A DNA stretch of 11,327 nt from a virus (Duplodnaviria; Heunggongvirae; Uroviricota; Caudoviricetes). A program made the translations under genes and the position numbers. The notes beneath the pieces were generated by a model. The model was not told where the DNA came from. It saw only the letters and a program-made list of their open reading frames with translations, and made no database searches. The stretch spans positions 1 through 11,327 of the IMG/VR virus record IMGVR_UViG_2778261591_000005. The stretch is one strand, 5' to 3'. Positions within the stretch are counted from its first letter, which is position 1. Each line of letters begins with the position of its first letter. This document shows positions 235-7,362 of this stretch, piece by piece.

Positions 235-618
235 TCAGAGCCGTATGTTTGTAGCGGGTTCAATGCTGATAATTTCTGCTGAGATAAGCATCCCGGCAAG
301 CCAGAGTTCTCCGGACAGGTCTTCATCCTGGCATATCAGTTCGCCAATATTAATGGTGGCCATGATATCCGTTTCCCCTGTGCGCTCATCCAGGGCTTCT
401 TCATAAGGCAGCGTTGCGTACAGGCTTTCAATAGCGCAATTGATAACATCCAGTCCGGTCAGATTGCCGCCGACAGTAACTTCGAATGTTTCGCGGTATT
501 CCCATAGTCCGAAAGTTAATCGAACGGTTTGTTTTGCCATGCGTCCGCACGACGTCAGATTCGGGTCATAGTTCATTATTTGCGGTTGAGTATTCTGGTT
601 GTTCATCTGATTTTCCAT
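235..618 (-). CDS. hypothetical acidic protein, start uncertain
   Basis: ORF track 235..678 minus. The 678 start is GTG with no SD and overlaps the SPFH gene; in-frame ATG at 618 sits just after an intergenic hairpin; alternative ATGs at 606 and 540. Product is rich in E/D (…LPYEEALDERTGETDIMATINIGELICQDEDLSGELW…). No family recognised. Confidence 0.45.
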   Translation of the reverse strand: MENQMNNQNTQPQIMNYDPNLTSCGRMAKQTVRLTFGLWEYRETFEVTVGGNLTGLDVINCAIESLYATLPYEEALDERTGETDIMATINIGELICQDEDLSGELWLAGMLISAEIISIEPATNIRL

Positions 619-621
619 TAA

Positions 622-638
622 CCCGGCGGTTTGCCGGG
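622..638 (-). other. GC-rich intergenic stem-loop between the SPFH gene stop and the next ORF (no U-run, so not a classic terminator)
   Basis: Plus strand reads CCCGGC-ggttt-GCCGGG: 6-bp perfect stem, 5-nt loop, immediately downstream (in transcription sense) of the stop at 647..649. Confidence 0.35.
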
Positions 639-646
639 CGTGTAAG

Positions 647-1474
647 TTATTTAATCTGGATAAATGGTGTATTGGCACCGCTGGTCATGTATTGCGGCAG
701 AGTACCGTTCCACTTGTTGATGGCTTCCAGCTCCATGACGCCAGGGTTCTGGCGCAGAGCTTCACCGCGTAAACGAATAGCATCGGCCTCGGCCTGGGCT
801 TTTGTGCGAATCGCATCTGCCTGTCCGGCAGCTTCCGCGCGCAACATGTTAGCTTCCGCTTCGCGCTGTTTTACTTCCTGTTCGCGTTGCAGGGTTTTCT
901 GGTTCGCCGTGACTTTGGCATTAATGCTGTCGATAACGGTTGGCGGGTACTCCGGCTTACCCACATATGAGAGACTCATTACCTGAATACCGATGGGCGT
1001 CATTTCTGCCTGAATGTCTTTAAGAGCTGCATCCAGTAGTTCAGACTTCCCGCCGTCGATAAATTTGTCAGTGGTCATTTTGCTGGCCAGTCGATTGAGT
1101 GCGTCGGCGATCTTCTGGCGCAGGTCAGTATCGGTAATGTCATCCACGCCTTTGCGGTAGGTCTGAAACACCGTGGTAACTTTGGATGGATCAACTTTGT
1201 AGGCAACACCGATGTGATAGCCAATGGTTGTGCCGTCACTCATCTGGAAGCTGAACGGCTCATCGTAGGTCTTCATTTGTTTGAAGGTTGGGAAGATGTA
1301 AACTTCAGTGTTCCATCCCGTCCAGTAGCGCCCAACACCGACCACTTCACCGACGCCTTTATCGTCGCCAAGTTTGTTTACTTTGATGCCCACATTACCA
1401 GGCTCAACGCGATCGCAACCGACAAGGCCAATGGTCGGCAGAACAAGGGCTAAAGCAAAAAGTAATTTTTTCAT
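647..1474 (-). CDS. SPFH/band-7 (stomatin/prohibitin/HflKC-like) domain lipoprotein
   Basis: 275 aa. N-terminal signal peptide with lipobox (MKKLLFALALVLPTIGLVGC, Cys20). C-terminal Ala/Glu/Arg-rich helical segment typical of SPFH proteins (QREAEANMLRAEAAGQADAIRTKAQAEADAIRLRGEALRQNP). SD AAGGA 4 nt before ATG. Confidence 0.85.
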   Translation of the reverse strand: MKKLLFALALVLPTIGLVGCDRVEPGNVGIKVNKLGDDKGVGEVVGVGRYWTGWNTEVYIFPTFKQMKTYDEPFSFQMSDGTTIGYHIGVAYKVDPSKVTTVFQTYRKGVDDITDTDLRQKIADALNRLASKMTTDKFIDGGKSELLDAALKDIQAEMTPIGIQVMSLSYVGKPEYPPTVIDSINAKVTANQKTLQREQEVKQREAEANMLRAEAAGQADAIRTKAQAEADAIRLRGEALRQNPGVMELEAINKWNGTLPQYMTSGANTPFIQIK

Positions 1475-1659
1475 CTTTTATCCTTAGAAAAAGAAAGACC
1501 CTTATAAATGGCATAAATGCAGGGCGGGGTCAGACACGCCAGAGCAAAGCCAGAAATCACTGCTACCGTATCCTTCATTGATATGAGGGCCGGAACGATT
1601 AATCCGTAAATACATGTGATAATTGCCAGTGATATAACTATTCTGAAATAAATGTTCAT
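1471..1659 (-). CDS. small membrane protein (62 aa, two predicted TM helices), translationally coupled to the SPFH gene
   Basis: Hydrophobic sequence MNIYFRIVISLAIITCIYGLIVPALISM…VAVISGFALACLTPPCIYAIY. CAGGAGG just upstream of ATG at 1659. Its stop overlaps the SPFH start in an ATGA arrangement (1471..1474). Confidence 0.6.
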   Translation of the reverse strand: MNIYFRIVISLAIITCIYGLIVPALISMKDTVAVISGFALACLTPPCIYAIYKGLSFSKDKR

Positions 1660-2989: not shown

Positions 2990-3071
2990 AATAATGCCTC
3001 CAGTGGATTAAGTGTGTGATAATCCCCGGCGATTAAGCCGTAATATATTATTCGGAGATAACTTGTTTTAT

Positions 3072-3272
3072 TTAACTGGATAGTTCTTTTTCAGATGCTG
3101 CTTCAGCATAGCAACGTGCAAATTCAAGAACTTCATCACCTGTTCTTTTTATTGCGTCGTTGTCTGACATTTGTAGTACGATAACTGCGCATAATAAATT
3201 ATGGATATTGTTTGCAAAGGAATCCGGTGCTAGGCATAAGCCTTCATACTTATCATGGATATTGCCAGTCAT
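3072..3272 (-). CDS. small protein (66 aa), paralog of the N-terminal domain of the adjacent tandem-HTH protein
   Basis: ATG at 3272 with AAGGAG 8 nt upstream (the track's GTG at 3314 gives a longer form). Shares DSFA-NI-NLL-AV … G-EV-EF--YA--AAS with residues about 27-75 of the 230-aa protein. Confidence 0.6.
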   Translation of the reverse strand: MTGNIHDKYEGLCLAPDSFANNIHNLLCAVIVLQMSDNDAIKRTGDEVLEFARCYAEAASEKELSS

Positions 3273-3277
3273 TGTTG

Positions 3278-3970
3278 CTACTCCTTTGCTTCTGATTTTC
3301 CCGTTAACAACCACATCAGGTCACAATTAAGCGCACTGGCCAGTGGTACTATCTGATCAGCAGGAACTTCACAGGTGCCGCATTCCCAGTCGTTTATGGG
3401 GTCGCTGTAGGTGTGAATCATGCGTGCCAGGTCTGCTTCTGTTAAGCCCAGTTTTTTACGGGCGCTTTTGATGCGCGCACCAATATTTTCCACATGGACT
3501 TCAGGCGCATTTACGCGAATAACTGACTCGCTGTTTTTTTCACTCAGCAGAGAAAGCGGATCGCATCCCAGGACGTTTGCCAGGGGGGTAAGCATGCTGA
3601 TGGTTGGCTCGTACTCTCCACTCTCCCATTGCAGAATAATTTCTTCATCAAGATCGAGTAGTCTGGCAAGTTCGGTGGTCGTTAAGCCGCAGGCTTCGCG
3701 TTGAGTGCGAAGGTTAACCAGCCAGCTTTCAGGGAAGGATTGTTTTTGTTGTGCAGGAGAAGCCGCAGATAGAGCATATTCATGGATAAATTCCATTACC
3801 TCAATGCCCAGTTCCTTTGAGCGAGCACAATCCAGAAGATGGAATGTGCGTACAGCACTTAGCAAATTTGCAATATTTAATGCAAAGGAATCAAGTTCTA
3901 AGCCCTTAAGCGAAACACAGCCGCAGTTGATAAGATTAGTTGTTTCTGGAGTTGCGTTTAGTGTCTTCAT
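3278..3970 (-). CDS. transcriptional regulator with N-terminal domain of unknown function plus two tandem XRE-family HTH domains
   Basis: 230 aa. HTH1: LRTQREACGLTTTELARLLDLDEEIILQWESGEYEPTISMLTPLANVLGCDPLSLL. HTH2: IGARIKSARKKLGLTEADLARMIHTYSDPINDWECGTCEVPADQIVPLASALNCDLMWLLTG. Own promoter upstream and terminator-insulated from the cI-like gene. Confidence 0.8.
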   Translation of the reverse strand: MKTLNATPETTNLINCGCVSLKGLELDSFALNIANLLSAVRTFHLLDCARSKELGIEVMEFIHEYALSAASPAQQKQSFPESWLVNLRTQREACGLTTTELARLLDLDEEIILQWESGEYEPTISMLTPLANVLGCDPLSLLSEKNSESVIRVNAPEVHVENIGARIKSARKKLGLTEADLARMIHTYSDPINDWECGTCEVPADQIVPLASALNCDLMWLLTGKSEAKE

Positions 3971-4115: not shown

Positions 4116-4805
4116 CTAACCAAATCTGTTTATATTGAATGGTACTGATGAGATCACTTTAGACTGGATATAAAGCAGAGCTAACCCCTCTTTTTCGATG
4201 CTCCATGGTTGATAATTAGGGTTATCAGATAACACCATGATTTTACTTCCAATTTTTTGAAGTCTTTTCACGTAGCATTCTCCATCAAAACAAAATGCAT
4301 AAATGCCATCGCCATCAAAATAAGTTACTGTCTTATCGAGAAAAAGAAGGTCGCCAGGTGAGATTGTGGGAGCCATACTGTCTCCTCTGGCGTTACCTAT
4401 TTCTATATTTTTGAATGCCCGATTTCCAACAAGACGTCGGGCATATTCAGGATCAAGTTCTATTGAGCGCACTACATCTATCAAGTCACCACGGACATGA
4501 GTTCCATCACCGCAACTAAACTCAACATCAAGGACATTAAACACGACGCTATCTGTTCTTGTCTGGAGTTTCTCTTGCGAGGAAAAGGTTGGTGAGGAGT
4601 CTTCGCCTAAGAACCAAGATTGTGGATAACCGCTAATCTCTGATAAATGCGCGAGCTTATCACTTCGTGGAAATGTTTTTCCTGTTGTCCAGTACTGCAC
4701 TGATTGCGCACTCACACCTAACTTGCGGGCCAGTTGAGCCTGAGTCCATCCTTTTGCTTTCAGCATCGCGGCTATTCGATTTTCCGTGTTTTTGACGTTC
4801 TTCAT
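4116..4805 (-). CDS. cI-like prophage repressor (N-terminal HTH, C-terminal S24/LexA-type autopeptidase domain)
   Basis: HTH: GWTQAQLARKLGVSAQSVQYW. S24 catalytic motifs: GDSMAPTISPGDLLFLDK (Ser) and YVKRL (Lys) about 36 aa later. Possible Cys-Gly cleavage site in FSCGDG. ATG at 4805 preferred over the TTG at 4811 used by the track. Confidence 0.9.
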   Translation of the reverse strand: MKNVKNTENRIAAMLKAKGWTQAQLARKLGVSAQSVQYWTTGKTFPRSDKLAHLSEISGYPQSWFLGEDSSPTFSSQEKLQTRTDSVVFNVLDVEFSCGDGTHVRGDLIDVVRSIELDPEYARRLVGNRAFKNIEIGNARGDSMAPTISPGDLLFLDKTVTYFDGDGIYAFCFDGECYVKRLQKIGSKIMVLSDNPNYQPWSIEKEGLALLYIQSKVISSVPFNINRFG

Positions 4806-4938
4806 GACCAAATCCTGTGGGTTTCTTTACAAGGATAAATCTTTACTTGATTTTAGTGTATTCGATCCTTTTGCAACTTGCATGTTAATTTAAACTTGAT
4901 GTATTCTTGATTTATAAAGTTAATATTGGTGATTTGTT
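4806..4938. promoter_or_regulatory. divergent promoter/operator region of the cI-like/Cro-like switch
   Basis: 133-bp AT-rich spacer between divergent genes. Three copies of an 11-bp motif: ACTTGATTTTA (4845..4855), ACTTGATGTAT (4894..4904), TCTTGATTTAT (4905..4915), the last two in tandem. Palindromic TGCAA-c-TTGCA at 4871..4881. Candidate rightward promoter TTAAAC-N17-TATAAA (4890..4918). Confidence 0.5.
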
Positions 4939-5211
4939 ATGAAAGGAAATGATTACGACAAACTTCGTACATTAATTGCGCAAAATGCCATAGCGCGAAA
5001 TCTTGGTGTGACGCCGCAAGCGGTGAATCAGTGGTTTTCAAAAAACACAATTCCTGCTCGTTTTGTTTTACGCGTATGTGAAGTAGTTGCATGGAAGGTC
5101 ACGCCACATGACTTAAGGCCAGATCTTTATCCTCACCCTGAAGATGGAATTCCTGATTCGTTACGCAAAATTTCAAATCCAAGCCTAGCGCACACGGAAG
5201 ATGGGAAGTGA
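4939..5211 (+). CDS. Cro-like HTH regulator (YdaS/DUF1019-type)
   Basis: 90 aa. HTH LGVTPQAVNQWFSKNTIP followed by the family-typical VTPHDLRPDLYP motif. Divergent from the cI-like gene. Confidence 0.85.
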   Translation: MKGNDYDKLRTLIAQNAIARNLGVTPQAVNQWFSKNTIPARFVLRVCEVVAWKVTPHDLRPDLYPHPEDGIPDSLRKISNPSLAHTEDGK

Positions 5212-5281
5212 TGGTGGTGATATGAGCGAAAAAATAACTATTAAATACGATGGGACAACCATTTCGATTGCCCCGATCACA

Positions 5282-5575
5282 TTAGCGTTCGCTGAGAAGT
5301 TGTTGGTAAGCCTTAAAGGATGCGAACTGCATTCTACCTTCGGCATTGATTCCAATGCCTTCGCTTGTACACCAAGCGATGAACTCGGCTGTATCCGCTT
5401 CAACTTTAATAACTCGTTGCCCGCCTCTTTCGACACGCTTAATCAATTTTTCAGCGTCGTGTTTCCACTCGGTGTAACTGTCGGAGAGCACATCAGCATC
5501 AGTAAAAATATTTTTGAGCTCATGATACTGAATCGCATCGCGAAACCAGAATAAACCAACGGCCTGAACTTTCAT
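5282..5575 (-). CDS. hypothetical protein (97 aa), orphan gene convergent with the Cro-like gene
   Basis: Strong SD (AAGGAGGttcgacATG). Protein-like composition (MKVQAVGLFWFRDAIQYHELKNIFTDADVLSDSYTEWKHDAEKLIKRVERGG…). Opposite orientation to the flanking rightward operon. Confidence 0.65.
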   Translation of the reverse strand: MKVQAVGLFWFRDAIQYHELKNIFTDADVLSDSYTEWKHDAEKLIKRVERGGQRVIKVEADTAEFIAWCTSEGIGINAEGRMQFASFKAYQQLLSER

Positions 5576-5688
5576 GTCGAACCTCCTTTGGTTCTTTTGT
5601 TTATAGGGATCAAAAGGATAACTGAAGGAAGGTTCGGCACCAATAAGTACGAATGTGCGGAATCTTAAAAGAATTTATCCGTAAGGAG

Positions 5689-6402
5689 ATGGCAGTGAAC
5701 ACCGCAATTTTTAACGGCAAAGCATCCATGACCAGCCTTGAAATCGCAGAGCTGGTGGGTAGTCAGCACTCAGATGTTAAACGTAGTATCGAACGCCTGG
5801 TTGCTAAAAACATCATCCGGAAACCGCCAATGGCTGTTTCCGAGAAAATCAATAACTTAGGTTTTAAAGTTCAATATGAGCATTACCTGTTTGAAGGAGA
5901 ACAAGGTAAACGCGACAGCATCATTGTCGTCGCTCAGCTCTGCCCTGAATTCACTGCTCGCCTGGTAGATCGCTGGCGCGAACTGGAAGAACAGATCCGT
6001 AAGCCAATGAGCGAAATCGAAATGGTTGCCGCGATGGCTCTTGAAGCTGTTCGTCAGCAGAAACGGATCACTCAGGTGGAAGAAAAAGTCAGCCACGTTG
6101 CCGAAACAGTTGAGCAAATCAAAAAGGGCACCATTCGTGAGGGCTATGCCGGATATCGCCAACTGAAAGCGAAAACCGGTTTGTCAGATGATAAATGCCG
6201 CAATCTGGTGAACGCTTATCAAATTCCTACAGACACCCATGAGTTCATGACGCCGGACGGATTGTTGTCACGTCGCGCAATTGTTGCCGTGGAACCTTTT
6301 ATGGCTGCTTTTTATCGGGTTATGGAGGAAGCAGAACCGCGAGGGACTCGCTGGTATCACCCGAAAATGGGGTTATTTCAGGTTATTGGTTGGCAGCGGT
6401 GA
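5689..6402 (+). CDS. Rha-family phage regulatory protein (paralog 1)
   Basis: N-terminal motif TSLEIAELVGSQHSDVKRSIERL matches the Rha-type signature. Start ambiguous: ATG 5653, ATG 5689 (AAGGAG directly abutting) or GTG 5695 (6-nt spacing). Confidence 0.7.
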   Translation: MAVNTAIFNGKASMTSLEIAELVGSQHSDVKRSIERLVAKNIIRKPPMAVSEKINNLGFKVQYEHYLFEGEQGKRDSIIVVAQLCPEFTARLVDRWRELEEQIRKPMSEIEMVAAMALEAVRQQKRITQVEEKVSHVAETVEQIKKGTIREGYAGYRQLKAKTGLSDDKCRNLVNAYQIPTDTHEFMTPDGLLSRRAIVAVEPFMAAFYRVMEEAEPRGTRWYHPKMGLFQVIGWQR

Positions 6403-6425
6403 AAAAAAGCCGGGAGTAACCCGGC
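6402..6425 (-). terminator. intrinsic terminator oriented for minus-strand transcription
   Basis: Minus strand: GCCGGG-uuacu-CCCGGC followed by UUUUUUU. On the plus strand the hairpin is preceded by A7 and not followed by a T-run, so it is unidirectional leftward. Confidence 0.55.
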
Positions 6426-6624
6426 TCACTCAACATCAATAACGGGGAGCTGTTTCGCATAAAACGGCTCCGAAACATCCAAGAACAGTTCTAAAGATAT
6501 CAGCAGCTATATGATCATTTCAAGACCAAATATTGATTCTGCAATTTCGGGACGTTACACTGTCTCTGCACCTTATAAAGCGGGTGCCGGGGGTCGCAGC
6601 CCGGAATTGTCAACGGCGATATAT

Positions 6625-6644
6625 GACGCGCCAGCGTCTTTTTT
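6625..6644 (+). terminator. candidate intrinsic terminator or attenuator on the plus strand between the two Rha-like genes
   Basis: GACGC-gcca-GCGTC followed by TTTTTT. Stem is short (5 bp) but GC-rich. Confidence 0.4.
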
Positions 6645-6810
6645 ATCGTCCGCGCTCACGCACGCCAGAATTATGGTGGGCTGGGCAGGGGAGCCGAAAG
6701 GCTCGCCGGTCTCCGTTGACGCCGGTACTGCGAACCCTGTTCAGTCTGCCACCAGTGAGTTTCGCAGCTCCGGTGGTGGAAGTTTTCCACAGTCAACGGA
6801 GGCTGCCATC

Positions 6811-7362
6811 ATGGCTACGATCCCAACCCTCACTCAACCTGAAATTGCCATCGTTGATGGTCAGGCTGTTACTTCATCCCTGGCTGTTGCCAATTTCTTC
6901 TCCAAGCGTCATGACGATGTACTGAAAAAGATCCGCACGCTTGAATGCTCCGCATCATTCACTGCCCGCAATTTTTCGGTGAGTGATTACACCGATTGCA
7001 CAGGCCGCAAACTACCTTGCTATCAAATCACCCGTGATGGCTTCGCGTTCCTTGCTATGGGCTTTACTGGCAAACGTGCAGCCCGGTTCAAAGAGGCATA
7101 CATCAACGCCTTTAACCAGATGGAGAAGAATTTATCTGGTGCTGACGCGGTTGATATGTCAGCTGTCGCACGAAACGCCAGAGGCGTATACCTGCATTTG
7201 CGTGAAATCCATCAAATCTGGACAAGCCAGCTTTATCCAATGCTTAAGGCCATTGAATCTCCGCTGGCTAGCAAACTGTACGACCGTGTTGGTGATGCTG
7301 TTTTTGGCGCTGCACTTGTTGATTCCAGGCTGAATGGTTCTGACAAGGAGGTTCGCCCATGA
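6811..7362 (+). CDS. Rha-family phage regulatory protein (paralog 2)
   Basis: Motif TSSLAVANFFSKRHDDVLKKIRTL. ATG at 6811 with GGAGG 9 nt upstream. The track's longer ORF from 6511 has a low-complexity G/S/A/P-rich N-terminal extension judged non-coding. Confidence 0.8.
   Translation: MATIPTLTQPEIAIVDGQAVTSSLAVANFFSKRHDDVLKKIRTLECSASFTARNFSVSDYTDCTGRKLPCYQITRDGFAFLAMGFTGKRAARFKEAYINAFNQMEKNLSGADAVDMSAVARNARGVYLHLREIHQIWTSQLYPMLKAIESPLASKLYDRVGDAVFGAALVDSRLNGSDKEVRP

Follow-up and report, generated by a model that had tools for sequence, protein, structure and literature searches.

A prophage accessory gene of the phrog_4753 family, convergent with cro in a lambdoid immunity region

In phage lambda, the leftward promoter PRE lies between cro and cII, is activated by CII, and reads through cro into cI. 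To our knowledge, lambda has no gene between cro and cII. Lambdoid phages often carry protective genes that are expressed in the lysogen near the immunity region, rexAB and sieB among them. The concept of the moron, with HK97 gene 15 as an example, has been reviewed by Cumby et al. 2012 (PMC3594210). The locus described here shares several properties with lambdoid morons: it is one small gene whose orientation is independent of the operon around it, it has a leader and a 3' hairpin of its own, and it is dispensable and horizontally spread among unrelated prophages. Unlike them, it has the GC content of its neighbours, and its insertion slot varies unusually little, even among very distant homologues. 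The locus is also reminiscent of lambda PRE, as the 97-aa gene lies to the right of cro and is read leftward, on the cI strand, with a CII-like gene just beyond it in three homologous loci. The likeness is limited, however: a stable hairpin separates the 97-aa gene from cro, and in our sequence Rha, not cII, is found on the right. No CII-type repeats were identified.

The window, by which we mean the whole stretch of 11,327 nucleotides that was analysed, is laid out around the 97-aa gene as a lambdoid immunity region (Table 1). The initial annotation had placed a reverse gene of 97 codons between the Cro-like and Rha genes, convergent with cro and preceded by a near-perfect Shine-Dalgarno sequence, and both its coordinates and the ribosome-binding site were exact. 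It had also called the gene an orphan, which is wrong. The phrog_4753 HMM aligns with residues 1-97 of the protein over profile positions 1-97 of 97 (E 2.5e-49, 166 bits), making it a full-length member of a family with 1,127 cluster representatives at E<=1e-3. The identical protein is a PGAP CDS, with the RefSeq accession given in Table 1, in E. coli prophages integrated beside mlrA.

Table 1. Features of the cro-Rha interval and its surroundings, in window coordinates
Feature	Position	Strand	Remarks
CI repressor, S24-peptidase	4116..4811	-	
Cro-like gene (context)	4939..5211	+	Pfam YdaS_toxin 2.3e-13 and P22_Cro; phrog_35 6.5e-21; convergent with 97-aa gene
Inserted cassette, about 500 bp	5184..5683	.	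replaced by 30 bp in phage PhiR49_2
Antisense ORF, 117 aa, open but non-coding	5201..5554	+	fully overlaps 97-aa gene
Conserved stem-loop GGGGCAATC-GAAAT-GGTTGTCCC	5252..5274	-	7 nt past stop codon; terminator-like scan match
97-aa gene	5282..5575	-	ATG start, TAA stop; phrog_4753; RefSeq WP_000867909.1 'hypothetical protein'
Possible long imperfect leader hairpin, ~20 bp	5578..5636	-	CCGAACCUUCC pairs with Shine-Dalgarno region
Terminator-like hairpin and T-run, rightward (cro/PR) strand	5579..5604	+	within insertion
Shine-Dalgarno AAGGAGG	5588..5582	-	6 nt (TTCGAC) ahead of ATG at 5575..5573
Candidate weak sigma-70 promoter	5615..5643	-	-35 TTGGTG 5643..5638, 17-nt spacer, -10 TATCCT 5620..5615
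First Rha/antirepressor-like gene (context)	5653..6402	+	Pfam Phage_pRha, phrog_63; right-hand cassette border

Some other features of the window may be recorded here. The Rha-domain genes form a tandem (5653..7362, +), the second of which (6511..7362) has an Ash domain at its N terminus together with Phage_pRha; PGAP differs in where it starts the two genes, at window 5695 and about 6511. Downstream of cI, on the minus strand, a 230-aa double-HTH "CII-like regulator" (phrog_4836, 3278..3970) is intact in the window and in strain SJ7, and is annotated as two separate HTH CDSs in strain F8704-2 (L001 10129..10821). A leftward operon at 235..1659 encodes a DUF5406 protein (235..678), an SPFH/Band 7 lipoprotein (647..1474) and an overlapping hydrophobic ORF of 62 aa (1471..1659), and looks like further cargo of the lysogenic-conversion or exclusion type.

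Both strands are open over most of the gene, and we compared the two frames over 16 distinct DNA alleles. In the minus-strand frame, variable sites number 30/13/75 at the three codon positions, dN/dS of diverged pairs is 0.03-0.14, and the window protein shares 75-81% amino-acid identity with diverged homologues. The initial annotation would have withdrawn its reading had the ORF not been conserved in related prophages, and it is clearly conserved. The alternative is that the real gene is the plus-strand ORF, continuing the cro operon, or that both strands code. An ATG does lie just past the cro stop codon, and the plus-strand ORF stays open in diverged homologues as well as in the window and has been annotated or called in relatives. 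Against this, its dN/dS lies around one (about 0.8-2.4), its amino-acid identity between the window and diverged homologues falls to 42-56%, variation is greatest at its first codon positions, and neither Pfam nor PHROG families gave it a match. In the leader, it is interrupted in the window by an indel and a stop. The frame is open because the true gene is nearly devoid of TTA, CTA and TCA codons. A plus-strand gene is thus almost certainly the wrong reading; it and dual coding were both rejected on the dN/dS values. Coding is on the minus strand only, and the 97-codon reverse gene is a real, conserved protein gene under purifying selection, far above chance. Misannotation of the strand recurs, the antisense ORF having taken the place of the true gene in the annotation of phage EKP1 (L004 4064..4396) and having been called alongside it in a Pectobacterium assembly (L010 3911..4354).

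The DNA of the 97-codon gene was found in 104 of 5,426 complete E. coli genomes, and the exact protein is present on at least 1,000 contigs from E. coli, Shigella and Salmonella, where it has never been given a name. Two E. coli copies, in IMG/VR prophage contigs (L037 and L044, gene at 3001..3291), carry nonsense alleles (W37*, E36*). Such alleles are to be expected in a dispensable accessory gene, and these premature stops show that gene function is occasionally lost.

To place the borders of the segment, the window was compared by blastn with L050 and L051. Up to 5183 the window has 96% identity to phage PhiR49_2, and from 5684 onwards 90%. The Stx2a phage Stx2_14040 has 86 bp instead of window 5170..5676, and the flanks of the insertion are 79-96% identical in these comparisons. 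Both phages are annotated with cro followed directly by a Roi/Rha-type DNA-binding gene. As these phages, which are otherwise collinear with the window and share its cI/cro and Rha genes, lack the segment and have cro abutting the Roi/Rha-type gene, the 97-aa gene lies on an insertion at the junction of cro and the next gene. The inserted DNA is a unit of ~0.4-0.5 kb, consisting of a conserved leader of ~70 nt, the gene with its strong Shine-Dalgarno sequence, and a stable stem-loop after the stop codon. Prophages of Klebsiella, Pectobacterium and Phytobacter, and others from IMG/VR, contain this unit too, with different cro genes before it and different right-hand genes after it. Homology begins exactly at the -35 TTGGTG, ~70 nt 5' of the ATG, and stops just past the 3' stem-loop. 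Scans with the single protein for more distant viral loci returned two loci, and a scan of GTDB genomes returned one.

The layout had been described in the initial annotation as that of an independently transcribed moron, and this holds in part. There is a discrete segment of ~500 bp with its own leader and 3' hairpin, which as extra DNA separates two genes that lie side by side in related phages, and to judge from the sequence comparisons its spread has been horizontal. A promoter and a terminator belonging to the cassette are plausible, each as a weak candidate. A base composition unlike that of the neighbours was not seen, as GC is 0.42-0.46 within the cassette, against 0.40-0.47 for the cro and Rha regions on either side.

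The interval 5576..5652 had been singled out as the place to look for a promoter of the gene's own. A consensus promoter scan found none there that reached the threshold for the 97-aa gene, although a weak conserved candidate, TTGGTG-17-TATCCT, is present; the scan missed PR and PRM as well. The candidate matches 7 of 12 consensus positions, which puts it below the scan threshold. In an alignment of leaders from the E. coli, Klebsiella, Pectobacterium and Phytobacter loci its position is conserved, with GATATT as the -10 in other lineages, and we infer from the sequence that it may serve as the promoter of the 97-aa gene. All leader variants keep GGAG and the TTCGACATG junction. The leader could also fold into a hairpin (minimum free energy -22.9 kcal/mol, z -4.4) whose arms are conserved. 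In RNAalifold the stem is kept with a covariation term of about 0, and it is partly broken in the most diverged variant. A leader structure that sequesters the Shine-Dalgarno sequence was therefore not adopted, as it folds well and has no covariation support; burial of the ribosome-binding site would possibly matter only if transcription starts upstream of 5636. One arm of this hairpin falls within the spacer of the candidate promoter. A search of window 4700..5800 against Rfam revealed no known RNA family.

The stem-loop past the stop codon is conserved and stable. Its folding energy is -17 to -21 kcal/mol, with z-scores of -3.5 to -4.8, across four diverged variants. The 3' stem is kept through G.U pairs, the plus-strand equivalents of which would be A.C mismatches. 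Because G.U pairs are valid only in minus-strand RNA, this points to a functional 3' structure of the leftward mRNA. The U-tract is poor and non-canonical, and on the sequence we treat the element as a candidate for terminating the minus-strand mRNA or stabilising its 3' end. Convergent transcription from the 97-aa gene might interfere with cro or PR, as the initial annotation had suggested, but a hairpin immediately after the stop codon would limit such an effect. The rightward-strand hairpin within the insertion could make PR transcripts pause ahead of Rha, in the manner of tR1. It is weak (-6.9 kcal/mol, z -0.6), and the Klebsiella and Pectobacterium cassettes do not keep its T-run.

The family is large and devoid of functional annotation. 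In a profile search of 1.84 billion cluster representatives, nearly all of the 1,127 hits to the phrog_4753-type protein are 95-110 aa long, and the near-invariant residues are W10, D26, W37, G52, W68, C69 and R81. The family extends well beyond phages, and its members are "hypothetical" in every source. Neither Pfam nor NCBIfam has a model for it, and no structure of a member has been solved. None of 116 family members matches any Pfam family, and scans of the protein and these 116 members against NCBIfam and PADLOC gave nothing above threshold. Comparison with the PDB by sequence profile gave chance-level matches only, the best being a GGDEF fragment (E 0.015). We found no literature on WP_000867909.1 or under the phrog_4753 number. 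Longer members were considered as a source of functional clues through domain fusion and were set aside, since they have only tandem repeats or unannotated extensions. Three of them (P0019, P0025 and P0038) consist of two or three tandem copies of the domain with coiled-coil-like linkers between.

Structure prediction, which the initial annotation had proposed as a check, gave a confident model. With the 116-sequence alignment, AlphaFold2 reached a pLDDT of 95.3 and a pTM of 0.84; an earlier model on a 14-sequence alignment (pLDDT 58) was dropped in its favour. The modelled topology is beta(5-10), alpha(14-23), alpha(34-50), beta(54-59), alpha(62-72), alpha(78-96). In BFVD, Foldseek matched the model to just two phage proteins, both of this kind and either unnamed or uncharacterised. 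The protein is soluble and acidic to neutral, and we saw in it no HTH, transmembrane segment, or enzyme, nuclease or NTPase motif. The predicted fold appears to resemble the non-HTH C-terminal dimerisation/extension domain of SO3848 (PDB 2OX6), a functionally uncharacterised HTH regulator of the Aca2/YdiL kind from Shewanella oneidensis. Regulators of this type are characterised by a C-terminal dimerisation domain with a two-strand parallel sheet. The 97-aa protein is itself no regulator of the Aca2/YdiL/SO3848 type, as it matches no HTH family and its model, which opens with a beta-strand, contains only four helices over the 97 residues.

We then considered where homologues are found. The slot convergent with the first gene or genes of the cro operon, ahead of the next early genes, is occupied by family members of only 27-35% identity. 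Convergence with cro is kept in 8 independent phage contexts, down to 28-35% identity. Distant members in this slot include those of phage EKP1, of three further types of metagenomic prophage, and of a Thiomonas-type element, where one small gene separates cro from the family member. In the Pectobacterium locus (L010), L015 and L052, the gene that follows on the cro strand is CII-like, with matches to phrog_101 in L010 (1e-35) and, more weakly, in L015, and a match to Pfam Phage_CII in L052 that is below threshold (8.6e-4). There are exceptions to the slot. A homologue of 30% identity in Klebsiella phage Kp4865-4 (L062 2498..2815) lies on the other flank of the immunity region, convergent with cI; the Cro of this phage, whose record is unannotated, closely resembles that of the window. 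The family member adjoins the integrase in L060 and lies inside a co-directional operon in Bcep176. In four non-phage chromosomal loci (L011, L013, L056 and L058) it is a stand-alone gene belonging to a clade of 101-aa proteins. Three of these have rubrerythrin/ferritin, Fur and catalase-peroxidase, or flavodoxin/HMA neighbours, and the neighbours of the fourth are a glyoxalase gene and a ParE toxin-antitoxin pair. An oxidative-stress or metal theme is possible for the chromosomal clade, perhaps tied to the invariant Cys. No conserved partner gene was found across the loci, the upstream 79-aa genes in L015 and L052 being unrelated to each other, and within the window the 97-aa gene has no co-oriented neighbour.

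Taken together, these observations make it probable that the gene belongs to a compact mobile accessory cassette, a moron in the structural sense, with its own leftward transcription, its own hairpin end, and a small oligomerising protein-binding module as its product. On this reading, a lambdoid E. coli prophage would have acquired the cassette at the 3' end of its cro gene. A weak sigma-70-type promoter at the cassette edge would drive leftward transcription, on the same strand as that of cI and independent of the PR operon that CI represses, and this transcription would largely terminate at the cassette's own hairpin before reaching cro. The absence of a DNA-binding or enzymatic signature, along with the apparent likeness to the SO3848 dimerisation/extension domain, suggests that the protein most likely acts as a small oligomerising module for protein-protein interaction with a host or phage partner. 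The outcome may be a dispensable benefit associated with the lysogen.

The constancy of the slot beside cro in the 8 phage contexts invites a different reading, in which the gene modulates the lysis-lysogeny switch, either by PRE-like antisense transcription that opposes cro and PR and may read into cI, or through a protein that docks on Cro or CI and tunes their dimerisation. The CII-like next gene in L010, L015 and L052 fits this reading, as does the Kp4865-4 homologue, which flanks the other side of the immunity region and is convergent with cI. The candidate promoter is weak and could need an activator, the poor U-tract makes read-through at the 3' hairpin conceivable, and the modelled fold appears to be like the dimerisation domain of an HTH regulator, so that the protein might represent, on its own, a domain that SO3848 carries joined to an HTH. 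We nevertheless regard a role in the switch as unlikely. The same leader and promoter region occurs with different CII-like proteins or with none, including in the window, where Rha follows, which argues against a shared CII-dependent promoter. A conserved stable hairpin stands between the gene and cro, close relatives of the window phage lack the gene, and nonsense alleles exist. The Cro and CI proteins that would be its partners come from different families, and other family members are found by an integrase, in a co-directional operon, and in non-phage chromosomes. A broader form of this idea, that the family represents a new class of immunity-region accessory factor, a stand-alone SO3848-type dimerisation domain that is kept convergent with cro by temperate phages of hosts from Enterobacterales to Burkholderiales-like organisms and that biases lysis-lysogeny in trans via the neighbouring Cro or CI or through PRE-like antisense transcription, strikes us as decidedly improbable. 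The initial annotation had instead favoured cargo for exclusion, toxin/antitoxin or anti-defence functions, and a single-gene element for superinfection exclusion, anti-phage defence, anti-defence or toxin/antitoxin activity would suit the moron-like layout beside the immunity region, the accessory distribution among E. coli genomes, and the horizontal spread. This, too, we consider quite unlikely. The sole match in PADLOC-DB 2.0 is a partial BrxC at 10.7 bits, which is not meaningful, and the match to the Phd antitoxin model TIGR01552 (12.8 bits, E 0.055) is below its cutoff of 20.8 bits. An adjacent partner gene is not conserved, the protein has no membrane segment and no nuclease or NTPase motif, and chromosomal non-phage members stand alone among housekeeping or stress genes.

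If the accessory-cassette reading is right, the gene is a further uncharacterised accessory gene of prophages and mainly of annotation value. The coding strand and the cassette boundaries are now fixed for a gene whose antisense ORF has been annotated instead in at least one phage record, and a family that comprises over 1,100 clusters and lacks a Pfam model now has a confident predicted fold. The gene is an ordinary prophage accessory gene from a large, already catalogued family, in an unusually constant position. If the protein touches Cro or CI, it would add a new and widespread layer to the textbook lambda-type switch.
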